From the NCBI RefSeq assembly GCF_056712565.1, contig NZ_CM160072.1: 64,000 bases of DNA. The stretch is one strand, 5' to 3'. The stretch's first letter is position 1, and each line of letters starts with the position of its first letter. The notes under the pieces were generated by a model. The model was given only the letters and a program-made list of their open reading frames with translations, was not told the origin of the DNA and searched no databases. The position numbers and the translations under genes are program-made. Positions 8,378-14,609 of the stretch are shown piece by piece.

Positions 8378-9175
8378 TCAATGAACGGTATCGAGCAGCT
8401 TTAACAGCTCAGGGAATCGGGATTCGAAGAAATGCGGCTGCGTCTCGCGCGGATTTGCAGGACTGGTGATGTTCTTGCCGAACATGCAGCCTTTCGCCGT
8501 CAGCGACCAGAATTTTTTGATGTTGTTAATCGCTGTACGGCTGTATCGTTCGCGCTGTTCGACGATCCCCAGCTTCGCCATCTGGTGATATGCCTGATTA
8601 GCCGTAAGGCGGATACCATACTGTTTCAGCAGTGCACTCAGCGACAGTGTCGGGCGACTTGAGCCATCAGGCGCGTCAGCAGGAGCATCAATGGCATAGC
8701 GCGGTGCCAGATTCGGTAAGCCAACAGCCTCCTGAAGCTTCTGACAGGCTCCAAGCACTGATGAGTTAGACAGGTTTAATTCCCGGCGCATAAAGTCCAG
8801 CAGGATCACGCCAGCCTGCATCTTGTCAGCAGCCTGCCCGGATAATTTTTCCGGTGTGCTGGTTACCATATCGAAAGTACGGATCACCTTCAGATGGAAT
8901 GACGGGCTTATCCACATTGCATAGGCATACACCAGTTCTTTGCAGACATACGTCCCCTGGTTATTTCCGCCACGAATAACGTTAACTGGCTCTATATTGA
9001 CCGAGTTGCAAATCTGCAACTCGCTTATTAAACGTTCAGTTTGCTCATTGCGGAGCCAGAATGCAGGCTTATGCTTATCCAGAGAACCGGCAGCCCTGTG
9101 CAGATCGTTCAGGCTGTAACGCCCATAAGCATCACGACGAACTTCAATACCATCAATAACCATCAGATTATTCAT
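8378..9175 (-). CDS. KilA-N domain protein
   Basis: N-terminus MNNLMVIDGIEVRRDAYGRYSLNDLHRAAGS...KPAFWLRNEQTERL is the KilA-N DNA-binding fold common in prophage early regions. Confidence 0.7.
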   Translation of the reverse strand: MNNLMVIDGIEVRRDAYGRYSLNDLHRAAGSLDKHKPAFWLRNEQTERLISELQICNSVNIEPVNVIRGGNNQGTYVCKELVYAYAMWISPSFHLKVIRTFDMVTSTPEKLSGQAADKMQAGVILLDFMRRELNLSNSSVLGACQKLQEAVGLPNLAPRYAIDAPADAPDGSSRPTLSLSALLKQYGIRLTANQAYHQMAKLGIVEQRERYSRTAINNIKKFWSLTAKGCMFGKNITSPANPRETQPHFFESRFPELLKLLDTVH

Positions 9176-9194
9176 ACTTCGTTTCTCCTCTTAA

Positions 9195-9584
9195 TCAGGC
9201 AGCTGCACCCGCCGTTTTCTCGTACTTACTGATAGTGATCTCGACCTTCCCTTCCGGGATAACCGGTCCCCACTCCACCAGCATTCTTTTCACCTGACTG
9301 TCGTCTTCCCACACACCCGCGTGGGTCAGGGCGTCAAACAGCGCCTTGTTATAGTTGTCCAGATCGCGGATCCGGTTATCCGGAGGAAACAACACGATCT
9401 CCACTGAAGCAGGTGCCGACGTTGGTTTTGGCAGACGACGTAACTGCTCAACTATTGCTGCACACGCCGCGCTCTGGAATTTGCGCCCCGCCGCGCTTAT
9501 CAGGCTCTTACCAGCAAACGCCCCTTTGTTGGGGTGTCGCCAGTACGTGTTCACGCTGGGCGGAAACGGCAGAATCAGCTTCAT
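9195..9584 (-). CDS. rusA: RusA-family Holliday junction resolvase
   Basis: 129 aa, MKLILPFPPSVNTYWRH...DLDNYNKALFDALTHAGVWEDDSQV matches the RusA signature. Confidence 0.85.
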   Translation of the reverse strand: MKLILPFPPSVNTYWRHPNKGAFAGKSLISAAGRKFQSAACAAIVEQLRRLPKPTSAPASVEIVLFPPDNRIRDLDNYNKALFDALTHAGVWEDDSQVKRMLVEWGPVIPEGKVEITISKYEKTAGAAA

Positions 9585-9907
9585 ACTTTCAGGCCCCTCT
9601 CATGTAACCAGTGGGCTGCACGCAGCCTGGCGTTTTCCTTACCGGCAAGCAGTGAGCGGATAATCCCGACCGCCTCGCTGTCGTCGTCCTTCACCGCGGT
9701 ATGAAGAGTGATACCCCGGGCCACGCCACGCTTTATCGTGATGACGCCTTTTTTCTCCAGTGCTCGAAGATGCTCCACCGCTGCATTCACTGAACGGTAT
9801 CCCAGCATGGTTGCCACCTCCTGATTGGTTGGCGGGAAGCCACGTTCTTTCTGATAAGAAATCAGCATATCCAGCACCTGCTGCTGGCATTGAGTTAACG
9901 TCGTCAT
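9581..9907 (-). CDS. LexA-type DNA-binding domain protein (no S24 peptidase domain)
   Basis: 108 aa resembling the LexA N-terminal winged-helix domain (LTQCQQQVLDMLISYQKERGFPPTNQEVATMLGYRSVNAAVEHLRALEKKGVI) but ending before any autocleavage domain. Confidence 0.5.
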   Translation of the reverse strand: MTTLTQCQQQVLDMLISYQKERGFPPTNQEVATMLGYRSVNAAVEHLRALEKKGVITIKRGVARGITLHTAVKDDDSEAVGIIRSLLAGKENARLRAAHWLHERGLKV

Positions 9908-10590
9908 GCCGCCATCTCCCTGAGCAGTTTTTCCGCCTGCTGGCGAACCTGCGCCAGAAACGCCTCACCACATGCCTCAAGTTCATCGCGCCCGATGTAG
10001 CTGATTGCCGGTCCCTTCCAGGTCTTGTCAAAAACAGCAATAGCACCAGCGAAGAAAGCTCCTGTCGGCACCTGCTTCTCGTCTTTCGGGATAAACCAGA
10101 CAGGCAGTTCAAAACCAATACGCCCGCGAATAAAAGCAATATGATCTGCATCTTCCGGCCACCACACTTCGCTGGTGGCAGCTTTGATCAGGAAAACATA
10201 GCGCCCGCCTTTATCACGCATGGCACTGGCATGCTTCATGATGTAACGCATGCCGGTGATGTATTGCCCCTCATGCTGACTGGCGCGGCTGTATGGGGGA
10301 TTACCAAAGGCAGCACCTTTAAGCTCCGCAAGACGTTCTGACCAGTCATGCGCCAGCGCATTGTCTTCCGCCGTGTAATACGCGGCACATTTGGCGTTAC
10401 CACCGTCGGTGAACAGATCCAGAACAAACGGGCCAAACAGGGTGTTAATTCCCCAGAAAATGTTGTCCGGCGTGCGCCACTGATCGCCCACTTCCTTCAG
10501 TTCATGGGCTGGTTTGTTCCGCAGCTCCACCAGCACCTGGCAATATTTATTACTCATTAAGCCCCCACGTAATTCCCTGACAGATACCAC
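9904..10590 (-). CDS. Phage DNA N6-adenine methyltransferase (Dam-like)
   Basis: 228 aa with the amino-methyltransferase catalytic motif NPPY (GAAFGNPPYS). Confidence 0.8.
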   Translation of the reverse strand: MVSVRELRGGLMSNKYCQVLVELRNKPAHELKEVGDQWRTPDNIFWGINTLFGPFVLDLFTDGGNAKCAAYYTAEDNALAHDWSERLAELKGAAFGNPPYSRASQHEGQYITGMRYIMKHASAMRDKGGRYVFLIKAATSEVWWPEDADHIAFIRGRIGFELPVWFIPKDEKQVPTGAFFAGAIAVFDKTWKGPAISYIGRDELEACGEAFLAQVRQQAEKLLREMAA

Positions 10591-11051
10591 TCTTCACCCG
10601 ATGCAGCGCGCTTGCTGCTTTTCCGTAAGCACCGCTCACGACGCGCCAGAAAATTGTTTCGTTCTGGCTGGGAGTGGCTTTCACGGAATGCCGCCATCCA
10701 CACGGTTGCAGCACGACGGTATAAACCCCTGGACTCCAGTTCTTCAGCCTGGCGGGTCAGGCACAAAATCACCCGTGGATCGTTAGTGCCGACATAGAAA
10801 TTGCGCACAGGTCTGGTTTCTCGAACTGGTTGTGGTTCCGGTTCCTGCGCTCTCTCAGTCAGGCGCGGGAAATGTCTGCGTGTATCTCCTTCACAACGGT
10901 GAGCCACACGCCCACTCTGACGTAACTTGCTTGCTGACTGCAGAACGCGCTGTCGTGAGTAACCTGCAAAAGCATCCGCAATGTCACCGGAAGTACACCC
11001 CGGATGGGCTTCAATGAATTTCTGAACGTCATTTAACAGACTCATGATCAC
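10557..11051 (-). CDS. Hypothetical prophage protein, possibly PerC-like regulator
   Basis: 164 aa; central region (LTRQAEELESRGLYRRAATVWMAAF) resembles PerC-family activators; weak assignment. Confidence 0.4.
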   Translation of the reverse strand: MIMSLLNDVQKFIEAHPGCTSGDIADAFAGYSRQRVLQSASKLRQSGRVAHRCEGDTRRHFPRLTERAQEPEPQPVRETRPVRNFYVGTNDPRVILCLTRQAEELESRGLYRRAATVWMAAFRESHSQPERNNFLARRERCLRKSSKRAASGEEWYLSGNYVGA

Positions 11052-11989
11052 CCCCTGAATCCTGCCGGGATCTGGCTGTAGTCCACGTTGTCGTAACTGG
11101 CTTTGAAGTACGGGTCCTCGCGTTTTTCGGTGTACGTACTTACGGACGGCGATAAGCGCAGGGAAAGCTCATCCCATTTTTCCCGCAGCTTCGACGGGCT
11201 GAGCACGTTACGGCACCAGAACGGATCGCGGCTGACGCGGCTGTACATCTCGCAGATTTGTTTGTGAGTACGACCATCCTGCACACACATCAGGCGAATT
11301 TCGTTTGCCCAGGCTGTCCAGTTCGGTTCTTTGGGACGAACCACCTCGCCGTCACATTCGGCAGCCTGCTCGTACAGGGCGATGATTTTTTTCCAGAGCC
11401 ACTGTGCGCAGGTCAAATCATCCTGCGTTCCCCACTGGCGCTTTTTAGGGCTGAATACAACAGCATCAGGATGGCGAGTTAAAAACTCCTGTTCAGCCGT
11501 CTGCGTGTCCGGTTGCGAAGCGTCCGGACGAGAAGTTTTTTTATCTGACGGATCATGTTTTGATTTTACTGACGGATCCCCGCCAGATTCTGACGGGTGA
11601 AAACCCGCTTTTTTGCCAGATTTCGACGCATCAAATTTTGACGGGGCAGATTTTGATGCGTCAGATTTTGACGGGTCAGAATCTGACAGTTGAGAAAATG
11701 CCGCTGCCTGAAGCTTCGCAACGTTAAGCTGATAAACATTCGACGCATTGCGGTTACCCTGGCGACGCGCCTTACGCGTTAACCAGCCTTCTGCTTCCAG
11801 CCGTGCGATAGCCGTTCTGACGGTACTCATCCCCGCGCCAATCTGGCGGGCAATGGTTTCAATTGATGGCCAGCACACACCTTCGTCATTACTGAAATCA
11901 GCCAGGCGGGCCATAATTGCCACGCTGGATAACTTCATGCCTGACGCAGCGCAACCATCCCATACATAGCCGGTTAATTTAGTGCTCAT
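11048..11989 (-). CDS. Phage replication initiation protein (HTH N-terminal domain, repeat-containing linker)
   Basis: 313 aa; N-terminal winged-helix region (CWPSIETIARQIGAGMSTVRTAIARLEAEGWL) typical of lambdoid O-like initiators; internal repeat peptide DASKSAPSKFDASKSGKK encoded by tandem DNA repeats. Confidence 0.65.
   Translation of the reverse strand: MSTKLTGYVWDGCAASGMKLSSVAIMARLADFSNDEGVCWPSIETIARQIGAGMSTVRTAIARLEAEGWLTRKARRQGNRNASNVYQLNVAKLQAAAFSQLSDSDPSKSDASKSAPSKFDASKSGKKAGFHPSESGGDPSVKSKHDPSDKKTSRPDASQPDTQTAEQEFLTRHPDAVVFSPKKRQWGTQDDLTCAQWLWKKIIALYEQAAECDGEVVRPKEPNWTAWANEIRLMCVQDGRTHKQICEMYSRVSRDPFWCRNVLSPSKLREKWDELSLRLSPSVSTYTEKREDPYFKASYDNVDYSQIPAGFRG
11541..11692. repeat. Iteron-like tandem repeats inside the replication gene (putative origin)
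   Basis: About eight imperfect ~15-bp direct repeats with core (c)AGATTTTGACGG, e.g. agattttgatgcgtc / agattttgacgggtc / agaatctgacagttg contiguous at 11648..11692. Confidence 0.5.
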
Positions 11990-12333
11990 GACCGACCTCT
12001 ATTTCCCTGAATTTACGACGAAACTGTTCGAGCGGACTGAAGCATTCATGCTCATAGCCTTCGCGGAGGTAGATAACCCGTTGTGTTTCCGGTTCCCAAC
12101 GAATGACTCTGACGGGCACTCCGTAGTGATCTTTGAACCAGCGGTTAACTTGTCGCAAAGGACTGTCTCCTTCTGCCGGTTGAAATCACCCACAGCCCAC
12201 TCAGCAAAGCTGTGGGTTACAATTTCCCTGTCACCTGGTACATTTACTGCATAGCAATACTCCACCTTCGCTTTTCCACCCGGTACAGGAAGCGCAATCA
12301 GTTGCGAGCGACGGTAGTGTGTTGTTAAACTGT

Positions 12334-12897
12334 TCATGCGTTAGTTTCTCCACAGTCACGACACGCCACGGCGCCCGGAGCTGCACACTCGCGGGCGTCA
12401 CTACTTTCTGAAACGCAAAAGATTTTGTAGACCAGTGCTGCATGCTCCTGCAGCTTCGAAATTGAGAGGTACAGCTCATCGTTAATTGCTGTCTTCTCAT
12501 GCGGTTCCACTACACCGTCTTCAATTGCTGAACGAATCTGTTTTGAATAACTGCCGATCTGTTCAATGACCTCCAGCAGGCGTTGGTTGATATCGGCGTT
12601 GTCCACATCCTCGACGTCAGGAAGAGACACAAAGACGCCATTTGCAGACTGCGCCACAGCATCAGCAATGAAGTGAGTGCCACCAGCACGCTGTAAAACC
12701 ATTGCCCATCCCAGCGGGAAAATCTGATCGCCATCTGCACGAAGGCGGTTGAATAAAGCGTTTTCTGTTACATCGAGCCAGTCAGCCGCTTCAGCGTAAC
12801 CACCCGGCAACGCCGCGATCGTTTTTCTGGCAGCTTTCACGTACCACTCAGGCTGTTTTTCTATTTTCCAGTGATGCTTACCCACGATTAGCCTCAT
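12334..12897 (-). CDS. Prophage regulatory protein, CII-like / YdaT-like
   Basis: 187 aa immediately downstream of the cro-like gene in the rightward early operon; family call is weak. Confidence 0.4.
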
Positions 12898-12928
12898 CGT
12901 TCTGTGGTTAAAAATTGAAAGTGTTCTG

Positions 12929-13129
12929 CTAATCTTTCGGATAGATATCCGGTCTTAAGTCAGATTTCGTAATTGCACCTGACGTGCATTGCTCAAGTTT
13001 TTTAGCCAGCACAAAACTGGCTTTTTTATAGCCATTGAAAACCAGCCGTAAGTAGCCAGGTGTTGAGCCAACTTTTCCGGCCAACTCGCCCTGCTGTTCT
13101 TTGGTTAAAGAGTCCCAATACGCTTTCAT
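12929..13129 (-). CDS. Cro-like HTH regulator (YdaS-like)
   Basis: 66-aa protein transcribed divergently from the CI-type repressor with a palindrome-containing intergenic region between them. Confidence 0.6.
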   Translation of the reverse strand: MKAYWDSLTKEQQGELAGKVGSTPGYLRLVFNGYKKASFVLAKKLEQCTSGAITKSDLRPDIYPKD

Positions 13130-13219
13130 ACAATGTGTACCTCAGGTGTACATATTACATGATTGAAATGAACCTTCAAGATACTTGTACCTTAACGGTA
13201 CAAGGGTTTTAATTTCGTT
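13130..13219. promoter_or_regulatory. Immunity-region operator/promoter between cro-like and cI-like genes
   Basis: Two palindromes sharing a GTAC core: TGTAC-N7-GTACA (13136..13152) and CTTGTACC-N5-GGTACAAG (13184..13204), in a 90-bp AT-rich divergent intergenic region. Confidence 0.55.
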
Positions 13220-13894
13220 ATGAAAACAATCCATGACATCCGGCGGTCTAACGCCAGAAAACTGAGAGATGGTGTTGGCGGGAATTCTTCCTTTGCCACT
13301 ATGATTGATCGCGAGCCAACCCAGACCAGCAGGTTTATGGGAGATGGTGCTACTAAAAATATCGGTGACAGCATGGCACGACACATCGAAAAATGTTTCG
13401 ACCTGCCTGTCGGATGGCTCGATCAAGAACACCAGACAACGAACATCACAAAAAAACCTGATGTTTCAATCACTAATAAACAAATCACATTAGTCCCTGT
13501 CATATCATGGGTACAGGCCGGAGCATGGAAAGAAGTTGGATATTCTGAGGTTGATTTGAGCACAGCAGAAACGTATCCCTGCCCTGTACCCTGTGGGGAA
13601 ATGACTTATATCTTGCGGGTGATAGGTGATTCAATGATTGATGAGTACCGCCCGGGAGACATGATTTTTGTCGATCCTGAAGTACCTGCCTGCCACGGTG
13701 ACGACGTTATTGCATTGATGCACGATACAGGTGAAACCACCTTCAAAAGGTTGATAGAAGATGGGACACAGCGTTATCTCAAAGCGTTAAACCCAAACTG
13801 GCCTGAGCCTTACATTAAGATCAACGGTAATTGCTCTATAATTGGTACTGTGATTTTCTCAGGAAAACCAAGAAGATACAAAATCAAAGCCTAA
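13220..13894 (+). CDS. CI-type repressor with S24 (LexA-like) autopeptidase domain
   Basis: 224 aa; N-terminal HTH region and C-terminal S24 domain with catalytic serine context VIGDSM. Confidence 0.85.
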   Translation: MKTIHDIRRSNARKLRDGVGGNSSFATMIDREPTQTSRFMGDGATKNIGDSMARHIEKCFDLPVGWLDQEHQTTNITKKPDVSITNKQITLVPVISWVQAGAWKEVGYSEVDLSTAETYPCPVPCGEMTYILRVIGDSMIDEYRPGDMIFVDPEVPACHGDDVIALMHDTGETTFKRLIEDGTQRYLKALNPNWPEPYIKINGNCSIIGTVIFSGKPRRYKIKA

Positions 13895-13907
13895 TCAATG
13901 TTTATGA

Positions 13908-13929
13908 ACCTGCTTCGGCAGGTTTTTTT
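13908..13929 (+). terminator. Rho-independent terminator after the repressor gene
   Basis: Stem ACCTGC-TTCG-GCAGGT followed by TTTTTTT. Confidence 0.6.
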
Positions 13930-14046
13930 ATACTTGACAATGTACCTTTGGGATACATAATGTACCCAAGAGAAACAACAAACAGGCAGGACGCCCACGA
14001 AGTAGCCGCCTGGGGCATATGAAGTCCAGGATGATTCGTTAGCAAC

Positions 14047-14075
14047 AAAAAAGCGCCCTATAGGACGCTTCGCTC
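14047..14075 (-). terminator. Terminator hairpin downstream of 14097..14609
   Basis: Minus-strand stem AAGCG-N10-CGCTT followed by a U-rich tract. Confidence 0.4.
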
Positions 14076-14096
14076 TTTAACAATCTGGATGACTTA

Positions 14097-14609
14097 TTAC
14101 TCAGATTTGAACTTTGGTTCTGGCAAAAGAGGAGGAGTTGAGTCCTCGAATCGTAGCCAGTGCTCCCAGATATCGTGGGATTGTAATTCCAGAAGACCAA
14201 TTTGACGTGATGCAACTGCAGTGCCAGCTATAGTTCCTCCTGCATAATCAACCTGGACGGACTTTGACGCTTTCTCAATTAATTCTGTCCAAGCTTCACT
14301 TTCCGCGTTAAAAGAAGCAGTTAATTCCTGCAGACGCTGTGGATCATCCTTGTTGTCTTGTTTCAAACGATTCAGGGCGGCCACCGAATACTTATTCTTA
14401 ACCCAACTAACCTGAGCTAACTGAACTCTCTGACAAGCGTCCATATCAGTAGTTGTTTCCTGAGGCATATCAAAGCAGGAAATAAAAAAAGTCTCAACAC
14501 CATCATTTAGACTACTGCTCGGCTGGTTCAAAGCATCAGAAGCATTGGATGCTATCGGTATTATCAGTGCTACCGACAGAATCAAACGTTTAACATAAAT
14601 CGCTCCCAT
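14097..14609 (-). CDS. Secreted/periplasmic protein with cleavable signal peptide (possible DUF1311/LprI-like)
   Basis: N-terminal KRLILSVALIIPIASNA-SD looks like a Sec signal peptide with an AxA-type site; two cysteines in the mature part; low GC; convergent with the repressor gene. Confidence 0.45.
   Translation of the reverse strand: MGAIYVKRLILSVALIIPIASNASDALNQPSSSLNDGVETFFISCFDMPQETTTDMDACQRVQLAQVSWVKNKYSVAALNRLKQDNKDDPQRLQELTASFNAESEAWTELIEKASKSVQVDYAGGTIAGTAVASRQIGLLELQSHDIWEHWLRFEDSTPPLLPEPKFKSE

Follow-up and report, generated by a model that had tools for sequence, protein, structure and literature searches.

Do short repeats inside a phage replication gene act as a DNA element, or do they only encode a peptide? 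This question is raised by a lambdoid prophage in a 64,000-nucleotide stretch of contig NZ_CM160072.1 (RefSeq assembly GCF_056712565.1; the whole stretch is referred to as the window), whose replication initiator gene (11048..11989, minus strand) contains an array of such repeats. An earlier note on this DNA, made from the sequence alone, had interpreted them as the iterons of a putative prophage origin that lies inside the initiator gene, as in bacteriophage lambda. Our analysis leads us to conclude, with a probability of roughly three in four, that the repeats and an adjacent unwinding element together form the replication origin of this SfII/SfIV/e14-like lambdoid prophage, embedded in its initiator gene where this encodes the linker. 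The lambda-like reading is supported by comparative evidence, given that the repeats are conserved as DNA and fall into an inter-domain linker, the units are dyad-symmetric, the least stable duplex is located just downstream of them and related initiators have repeats of their own at this place, although the spacing of the units differs from that in lambda.

Repeats and unstable duplex within the initiator gene

A repeat search recovered six copies of the motif, starting at positions 11581, 11614, 11629, 11644, 11659 and 11674 (spaced by 33, 15, 15, 15 and 15 base pairs, bp), and two further copies, TTTATCTGACGGATC / TTTTACTGACGGATC, at 11540 and 11564, which have the form T(3-4)A(T/C)CTGACGGATC. 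The tandem-repeat check suggested in the earlier note gave a corresponding result, with Tandem Repeats Finder reporting a period of 15 (4.3 copies, 77% matches) or 30 (2.1 copies, 85% matches) at 11617-11680. Despite its higher score, the period of 30 was rejected as the true unit, as it arises from an alternation of CCG and GCR in the window allele and, by eye, is absent in homologues such as that of locus L004. The array is made up of five contiguous full units (11615..11687, no strand assigned; 13-bp cores at 11675-11687, 11660-11672, 11645-11657, 11630-11642 and 11615-11627), a sixth, isolated full unit located 33 bp from the array (11582..11594, no strand assigned; coding strand CCGTCAGAATCTGGC) and two half-like copies (11540-11578). 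The array described in the earlier note is thus real and correctly placed, but the proposed number of about eight tandem repeats of ~15 bp is only reached if degenerate copies are included, with five units being strictly tandem. A search of the window for the 12-mer AGATTTTGACGG, in which two mismatches were allowed, gave 13 matches. Five of these fell within 11585-11674, while the other eight were scattered, compared with a chance expectation of 5.7 ± 2.2 for the window as a whole.

Each unit can be read in two ways. On the coding strand, it comprises five in-frame codons, NNN-TCA-RAA-TCT-GAC, which specify [P/A]-S-K-S-D, and the translated reading frame indeed contains the repetitive peptide SDSDPSKSDASKSAPSKFDASKSGKKAGF that had been quoted for the linker. 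As DNA, it forms a 13-bp palindrome, GTCAGAWTCTGAC, with two 6-bp arms around one central base (6+1+6), and the period of 15 bp renders the array symmetric also about the unit junctions (TCTGAC-GC-GTCAGA). The third unit of the window (11645-11657) has TCTGCC in place of TCTGAC, so that Asp is replaced by Ala and one arm of the palindrome is broken. This variant is found in two of 80 alleles from the IMG/VR database (L022 and L068), the majority of which keep the intact core.

The assignment of the surrounding gene to replication was confirmed. The array lies in the minus-strand open reading frame 11048-11989, whose product of 313 residues matches the Pfam family HTH_36 (residues 23-70, E=4e-11) and, over its whole length, PHROG 391 (E=6e-135), although the label of the latter, 'replication initiation O-like', is a functional naming only. 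The gene is 98-99% identical to a gene with the annotation replication, primosomal or O protein in the Shigella phages SfIV and SfII and in several E. coli phages. AlphaFold2 predicts a winged-helix domain at residues 7-104 (predicted local distance difference test score, pLDDT, of 70-86; helix-helix-helix-strand-strand wing), followed by a region devoid of secondary structure at residues 103-166 (pLDDT below 50, about 30) and a helical C-terminal domain at residues 189-278 (pLDDT 80-92). Based on this model, the fold search and the identity by codon position, we delimit an N-terminal winged-helix domain (residues 1-97; 11699..11989, minus strand), which presumably reads the iterons. It is followed by a linker-coding segment that carries all repeats (residues 98-166; 11492..11698, minus strand) and a C-terminal helical domain (residues 167-313; 11051..11491, minus strand), which is exchangeable between phages and presumed to contact the replication machinery. 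Occupying codons 101-150 of 313, the repeats are situated between the two predicted domains and encode the inter-domain linker, which is predicted to be disordered.

The best fold matches of the N-terminal domain in the Protein Data Bank (PDB) are MarR-type dimeric winged-helix proteins, several of them solved on DNA, although these matches are weak (E about 1e-3, template-modelling score about 0.5); a sequence search of the PDB produced nothing useful. The Pfam matches of the protein comprise HTH_36, GntR, HTH_29, PaaX and, weakly, DnaD_N and RP-C, with the Phage_rep_O profile not being among them. The DnaD_N match (E=0.0013, 19.4 bits) falls under the 27-bit cut-off, and the protein also matches PHROG 2514 'DnaD-like helicase loader' (E=3e-29). 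The C-terminal domain has no Pfam match.

Downstream of the array in the direction of the gene, an 18-bp spacer and the sixth unit are followed by a conserved A/T-rich block of 42 nucleotides (11537..11578, no strand assigned; coding strand GATCCGTCAGTAAAATCAAAACATGATCCGTCAGATAAAAAA), a candidate DNA-unwinding element that also includes candidate half-sites. It contains two CTGACGGATC boxes (CCGTCAG) spaced 24 bp apart and two GATC sites (11551-11554 and 11575-11578) with the same distance. The 40-bp duplex with the lowest stability in the whole gene maps to 11530-11570 (-47.5 kcal/mol, versus a gene mean of -58.7 with a standard deviation of 3.2). Likewise, the least stable segments of 30, 40 and 50 bp all lie within 11528-11578, and the A+T content of 11533-11583 amounts to 61%, compared with 47% for the gene.

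The symmetry of the array also bears on the idea that the conservation of this segment, described below, reflects an overlapping product, i.e. a small open reading frame in an alternative frame or antisense, or a structured RNA. Reading frames of 55 residues (11560-11727, plus strand) and 60 residues (11566-11748, minus strand) do extend across the array, a single strand of which folds better than shuffled sequence (z=-4.7), and there is a terminator-like hairpin in antisense orientation (11594-11607). However, the fold score follows directly from the palindromic iterons and the symmetry of the array about the unit junctions, and the additional reading frames, which encode repeats such as QILTG, are open because stop codons are absent from the unit in these frames. 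We thus regard an overlapping product as highly improbable. No sigma-70-like promoter was found in 11000-12400, and a promoter or antisense transcript in the array was rejected. The hairpin, CGGGTGAAAACCCG followed by CTTTTTTGCC (11594-11616, plus strand), lies in the spacer between the sixth iteron and the array; inspection by eye showed no conservation in homologues, and it is probably fortuitous. An Rfam scan of 9000-14500 returned mir-5880, a eukaryotic microRNA family, at 11614-11688 on the minus strand (27.7 bits versus a gathering score of 97 bits), an artefact of the palindromic array, and elsewhere a weak Phe-leader match, which was dismissed as chance. Boxes for DnaA, integration host factor and LexA were sought by eye only, and no convincing match was seen.

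Conservation of the linker as DNA or as protein

The repeats could matter as protein only, constituting a low-complexity, slippage-prone linker of Ser/Lys/Asp pentapeptides whose likeness at the DNA level results from recent duplication and concerted evolution. In line with this notion, the units are exactly five codons long and in frame, their copy number varies among alleles, the segment is predicted to be disordered, and recent duplication could generate codon uniformity within a single array. We assessed this explanation using homologues from phage GenBank records and IMG/VR, which formed 22 clusters with N-terminal domains 54-100% identical to that of the window. A first scan of IMG/VR, with alignment, yielded near-identical alleles only, which were used to analyze copy-number polymorphism, and two further scans employed diverged queries. 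Conservation at the protein level only had been named in the earlier note as an outcome that would speak against its interpretation. The comparisons revealed the opposite, as apparent from codon choice, codon shuffling, third codon positions and the flanking block.

In a set of eight homologues, Ser is encoded by TCA or TCT at 105 of 115 positions in the linker (91%), as opposed to 44 of 176 (25%) in the rest of the gene, with AGC being absent from the linker (0/115) but used 46 times in 176 elsewhere. Similarly, 49 of 50 Lys codons in the linker are AAA, versus 91 of 136 elsewhere. When synonymous codons were shuffled such that the protein was kept, the motif count fell below the observed value in all eight homologues, which was matched by between 0 and 41 of 500 shuffles across genes and mismatch levels, with the row for the window gene itself being biased because the consensus was derived from the window allele. 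In pairwise comparisons of homologues, the fraction of conserved residues with identical codons ranged from 0.32 to 0.53 in the N-terminal domain and from 0.56 to 0.95 in the linker block, the near-identical pair L002/L004 being excluded from both ranges. Since the same codon is used at just 32-53% of the identical residues of the N-terminal domain, synonymous sites in this part of the gene are saturated. Nevertheless, the same choice of codons in the units (TCA then TCT, and AAA) recurs in lineages that have reached this saturation, and the synonymous codons around the sixth iteron are 60-95% identical between such homologues.

Across the 22 clusters, motif matches with up to two mismatches are confined to codons 95-200 except for a single match in L116, and nearly all of them are in frame 0. 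In most clusters, an isolated in-frame unit follows 11-21 codons after the last tandem match. L116 (IMGVR_UViG_2791354942_000002) is also unusual in its architecture, as its codons from about 105 to 200 comprise at least four repetitions of a unit of roughly 20 residues (60 bp), GLKTGPSEPQGPKSGLSESE, with nine motif matches. Of the two third-codon bases in the core, one is A in 106 of 109 units and the other is T in 100 of 109, absolute values that are inflated by the selection of units for their similarity to the consensus, although the contrast between codon positions is unaffected. First-position changes that alter the residue, namely TCA/CCA (S/P) and AAA/GAA (K/E), are frequent, such that third positions are more conserved than first positions. 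In other words, third-position bases are fixed in spite of variation in the residues (S<->P, K<->E, D<->E<->G), a pattern that speaks against a role as protein only.

The flanking block leads to the same conclusion. Its 42 nucleotides can be aligned as DNA across the 22 clusters, with mean pairwise identities of 0.71, 0.68 and 0.65 at the first, second and third codon position, respectively. The corresponding values for the N-terminal domain, 0.72, 0.78 and 0.39, bear the ordinary signature of protein-level selection, whereas a neutrally drifting linker would be expected to show values close to 0.39 at all three positions. A non-repetitive sequence that is about equally conserved at the three codon positions is difficult to reconcile with a role as protein only. 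Both GATC sites of the block are kept in most of the clusters, which have GAT-CC rather than GAC-CC.

Among the 80 near-identical alleles, length differences correspond to whole 15-bp units (+1 or +2), and point changes mostly affect the spacer codon (CCG to ACG, CAG or GCA) instead of the core. In two IMG/VR alleles, L022 and L050, one extra A in an A-run (11536-11542 and 11609-11614 in the window) causes a frameshift that truncates the initiator after the linker; these alleles may represent defective prophages or homopolymer sequencing errors. Finally, initiators of a sister subfamily, considered further below, have quite different peptides at the equivalent place (GGAGAA, PPMPSDGT or PSDKMSP), yet they always carry DNA repeats there, several of which are visibly palindromic. 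Taken together, the comparisons indicate that purifying selection on the linker operates at the nucleotide level and not on the residues, making a function of the repeats as protein only quite improbable.

Linkage to the DNA-binding domain and the sister initiators

Conservation at the nucleotide level shows that the DNA matters, but not what for. The repeats might therefore be a cis-acting element with another role, serving as autoregulatory operators, bound by the initiator or another phage regulator, or as a recombination 'linker' for the exchange of N- and C-terminal modules. Consistent with these ideas, palindromes are typical of operators, the N-terminal fold resembles that of MarR-type repressors, and there is a mosaic breakpoint directly after the block. 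The mode of inheritance of the different parts supports the origin reading. Similarity to phage mEp460_4F5 is limited to the C-terminal half of the gene, whereas in the Citrobacter phage phiNP it covers just the N-terminal half and the repeats. More generally, one type of N-terminal domain plus linker occurs with three or more C-terminal domains that are unrelated to each other (among them the window type, the Phg_2220_C type and the phiP27 type), and the downstream partner varies as well, being DnaC-like plus DnaB in phiP27, DnaB-like in ZF40 and P in RAH1, with none in the prophage of the window. Among the genes compared, the repeats are thus co-inherited with the N-terminal domain, while the C-terminal domain is swapped.

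The sequence of the half-sites appears to follow that of the presumed reader. Half-site flanks of the type GTCA...TGAC are associated with the recognition helix/wing sequences STVRTA / GNRNASNVY and flanks of the type TTCA...TGAA with STVIT / GQRS.TN.Y, with 20 and 30 matched flank pairs as opposed to 5 and 6 mixed ones. A symmetric change in both flanks is the pattern that would be expected of a dimer reading two half-sites.

Further evidence comes from the sister initiators, found in Min27, mEp460 (SfV-like), ST64B, ZF40, RAH1 and Vibrio phage D75, whose N-terminal domains are 30-45% identical to that of the window protein. They have repeats of their own directly after this domain, in two to four copies that are mostly 21-24 bp apart and differ in sequence from phage to phage (e.g. 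GGGGCAGGAGCTGCCC, TATGCCATCTGATGGCA, TAGTGACAAAATGTCACCA and CCTGTGCCACCAAAAAGCACAG), with several being visibly dyad-symmetric. In the six members examined (L008-L013), the repeats are followed by a common block that is conserved as DNA, AGAACCAGTCACTCTTTTGAACCAGTCAATGAACC, and encodes the peptide RTSHSFEPVNEP; this block is probably the common core of the sister-phage origins. Located at about nucleotides 330-400 of the gene, it has almost the same DNA sequence in phages of Vibrio, Pectobacterium, Klebsiella, Salmonella and E. coli, even though the rest of the genes has diverged, and it holds a duplicated GAACCAGTCA box. The sister subfamily of HTH_36 'O-like' proteins, which includes that of SfV, hence resembles the window system in the fold family of its N-terminal domain and in the succession of domain, repeats and a DNA-conserved block with a duplicated box. 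It differs in having only 2-4 repeats at a spacing of 21-24 bp or wider and in sharing the AGAACCAGTCACTCTTTTGAACCAGTCAATGAACC block instead of the GATC-containing block of the window.

We consider a different cis-acting role unlikely. The families to which the protein belongs are those of phage replication initiators, repeats located here are regarded as the origin in lambda, P22 and L, and the juxtaposition of multiple iterons and a low-stability tract corresponds to the layout of an origin. A recombination junction alone would be near-identical throughout, but the block is moderately diverged and its conservation is motif-specific. Autoregulation, on the other hand, would be compatible with origin function.

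Comparison with known origins and proposed mechanism

Our preferred interpretation of the repeats as an origin is best evaluated by comparison with systems that have been characterized previously. The lambda origin lies in the middle of gene O and is composed of O-binding iterons and an AT-rich tract (PMC7466680). Lambda, P22 and L have only distantly related origin-binding proteins, each with different iterons inside the coding region, which in phage L comprise six imprecise copies of an 11-bp sequence (bioRxiv 10.1101/2020.10.05.325894). The element in the window shares with the lambda origin its location within the initiator gene, in the part linking the DNA-binding N-terminal domain to a C-terminal domain that recruits, or in the window presumably recruits, a partner. 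In both cases, multiple direct repeats occur, whose units are dyad-symmetric around an A-rich centre, and a low-stability tract lies on the downstream side, such that domain, iterons and least stable duplex follow one another in the same order. Moreover, the repeats are inherited along with the N-terminal domain, and the C-terminal domain fits the partner encoded downstream. The differences are also evident, as the initiator in the window is an HTH_36 protein with no Phage_rep_O match listed, and its gene is not followed by a P-like loader gene. The units are 13-15 bp in length and contiguous at 15-bp spacing, whereas the iterons of lambda measure roughly 20 bp and are wider apart; there are five to nine copies instead of four, and the A/T tract, at 61% A+T, is weaker than that of lambda and has two conserved GATC sites. 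In P22 and phage L, the origins likewise comprise iterons within gene 18 that are particular to each phage, short and numerous, but the repeat sequences are different (TGTCCAACGGA in L), and these phages possess a DnaB-type helicase of their own (gene 12). Iteron plasmids such as pPS10, R6K, RK2 and P1 (oriR) resemble the origin proposed here in their arrays of initiator-binding direct repeats beside a DNA-unwinding element. Functionally important GATC sites are also present in P1 oriR. However, plasmid iterons are usually 17-22 bp long, about two helical turns apart and outside the rep gene, and the cognate Rep proteins have two winged-helix domains (WH1-WH2), whereas the model of the window protein shows one, and its repeats, 15 bp in length, lie inside the gene.

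Several observations weigh against an origin of this kind. The spacing of 15 bp, found in every member of the subfamily to which the window belongs, is narrower than the roughly 20-24 bp that make up about two helical turns. It corresponds to about 1.4 turns from centre to centre, with lambda (roughly 20 bp) and the sister initiators (21-24 bp) being wider, so that neighbouring dimers would be rotated relative to each other around the helix and simultaneous binding of all of them may not be possible. The A+T content of the 'A/T-rich' block is just 61%, and nearby intergenic regions are less stable. The covariation between flanks and recognition sequences rests on few independent evolutionary events, with phiP27-like genes being mixed, and the conservation at the module junction could partly come from repeated recombination there, in addition to the inflation of the absolute conservation values mentioned above. 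Furthermore, the literature searched contains no binding, footprint or replication assay for this initiator family. Several publications on SfI, SfIV and Sf101 do not describe this origin, and we found no paper in which an origin is described for SfII, SfIV or related phages.

Despite these points, we favour the origin interpretation and propose the following mechanism. Dimers of the N-terminal winged-helix domain would bind the 13-bp palindromic iterons, five of them at 15-bp spacing plus the isolated copy, and perhaps also the two CTGACGGATC half-sites. The resulting nucleoprotein complex would destabilise the adjacent A/T-rich GATC block (11537-11578), whose location on the downstream side with respect to transcription corresponds to that in lambda, and the exchangeable C-terminal domain would then bring in the replicative helicase, presumably the host DnaB-DnaC system. 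Binding of the initiator, unwinding at the A/T block, recruitment of the helicase and origin activity itself are all steps that we infer.

The genetic surroundings provide some context for this model. The early region is lambdoid, with genes for a LexA-like repressor (ymfK), a cro-like (ymfT) and a cII-like (ymfL) protein and DUF4222 preceding the initiator, and genes for a PerC-like protein (yfdN), a Dam-family methylase, a LexA-family regulator, RusA, an antiterminator, lysis proteins and HK97-type head proteins following it. No helicase or helicase-loader gene is present in the early-right operon of the prophage (9195-13894), and replication therefore presumably relies on host DnaB/DnaC. 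At both ends of the initiator gene, start and stop codons overlap with those of its neighbours (DUF4222-initiator, 11979-11989; initiator-PerC-like gene, 11048-11051), which suggests translational coupling. The Dam-family methylase gene (9904-10590, minus strand; Pfam PF05869, E=6e-45) is part of the same operon, making it possible that initiation is controlled by methylation of the GATC pair. Methylase genes likewise occur downstream of the initiator gene, or separated from it by one gene, in phiNP, LLS, 733R5, YeP2, mEp460 and ST64B.

The initiator ends in a tail, NVDYSQIPAGFRG (11048-11095), that is common to several unrelated types of C-terminal domain and reads roughly [DY]-Y-S-x-[IV]-P-x-G-F-R-[GS]. 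It is shared by loci L001, L003, L007, L009 and L010 and many IMG/VR loci, but not by the phiP27-type C-terminus. In mEp460 and ST64B of the sister subfamily, it takes the form ...YSQIP.GFRG. The tail may represent a docking peptide for host replication proteins. The end of E. coli DnaT is presumably similar to it, which would account for the 'primosomal protein' annotations.

A bolder variant of the model would regard the element as an origin of distinct design. In this case, it would be an unbroken lattice of 15-bp palindromes with alternating half-sites, occupied by dimers in two registers, which is conceivable because a palindrome with a 15-bp period is symmetric also between units. The copy number would be tuned by in-frame slippage, and firing would be gated by GATC methylation through the Dam protein of the host or the Dam-family methylase of the phage, with the helicase machinery of the host, in the absence of a phage loader, being docked via the ...IP.GFRG tail. 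We consider such a design rather unlikely. Very probably, the element instead adds a further case, not characterised before, to the familiar origins of lambda type.

As such, it leaves the established picture of lambdoid replication unchanged, but it stands out by its 15-bp lattice, its conserved GATC pair and the C-terminal tail that its initiator shares with others. The gene that harbours it is widespread, being found at a coverage of at least 80% in 1575 of 5426 complete E. coli genomes under the RefSeq name 'helix-turn-helix domain-containing protein'. The location of the origin would provide a defined origin-plus-initiator cassette for these prophages, including the serotype-converting Shigella phages SfII and SfIV. 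It would also account for the joint movement of the N-terminal half and the linker in mosaic phage genomes, and it would represent a clean case of a coding segment in which a DNA-binding site, and not the encoded protein, determines the sequence.

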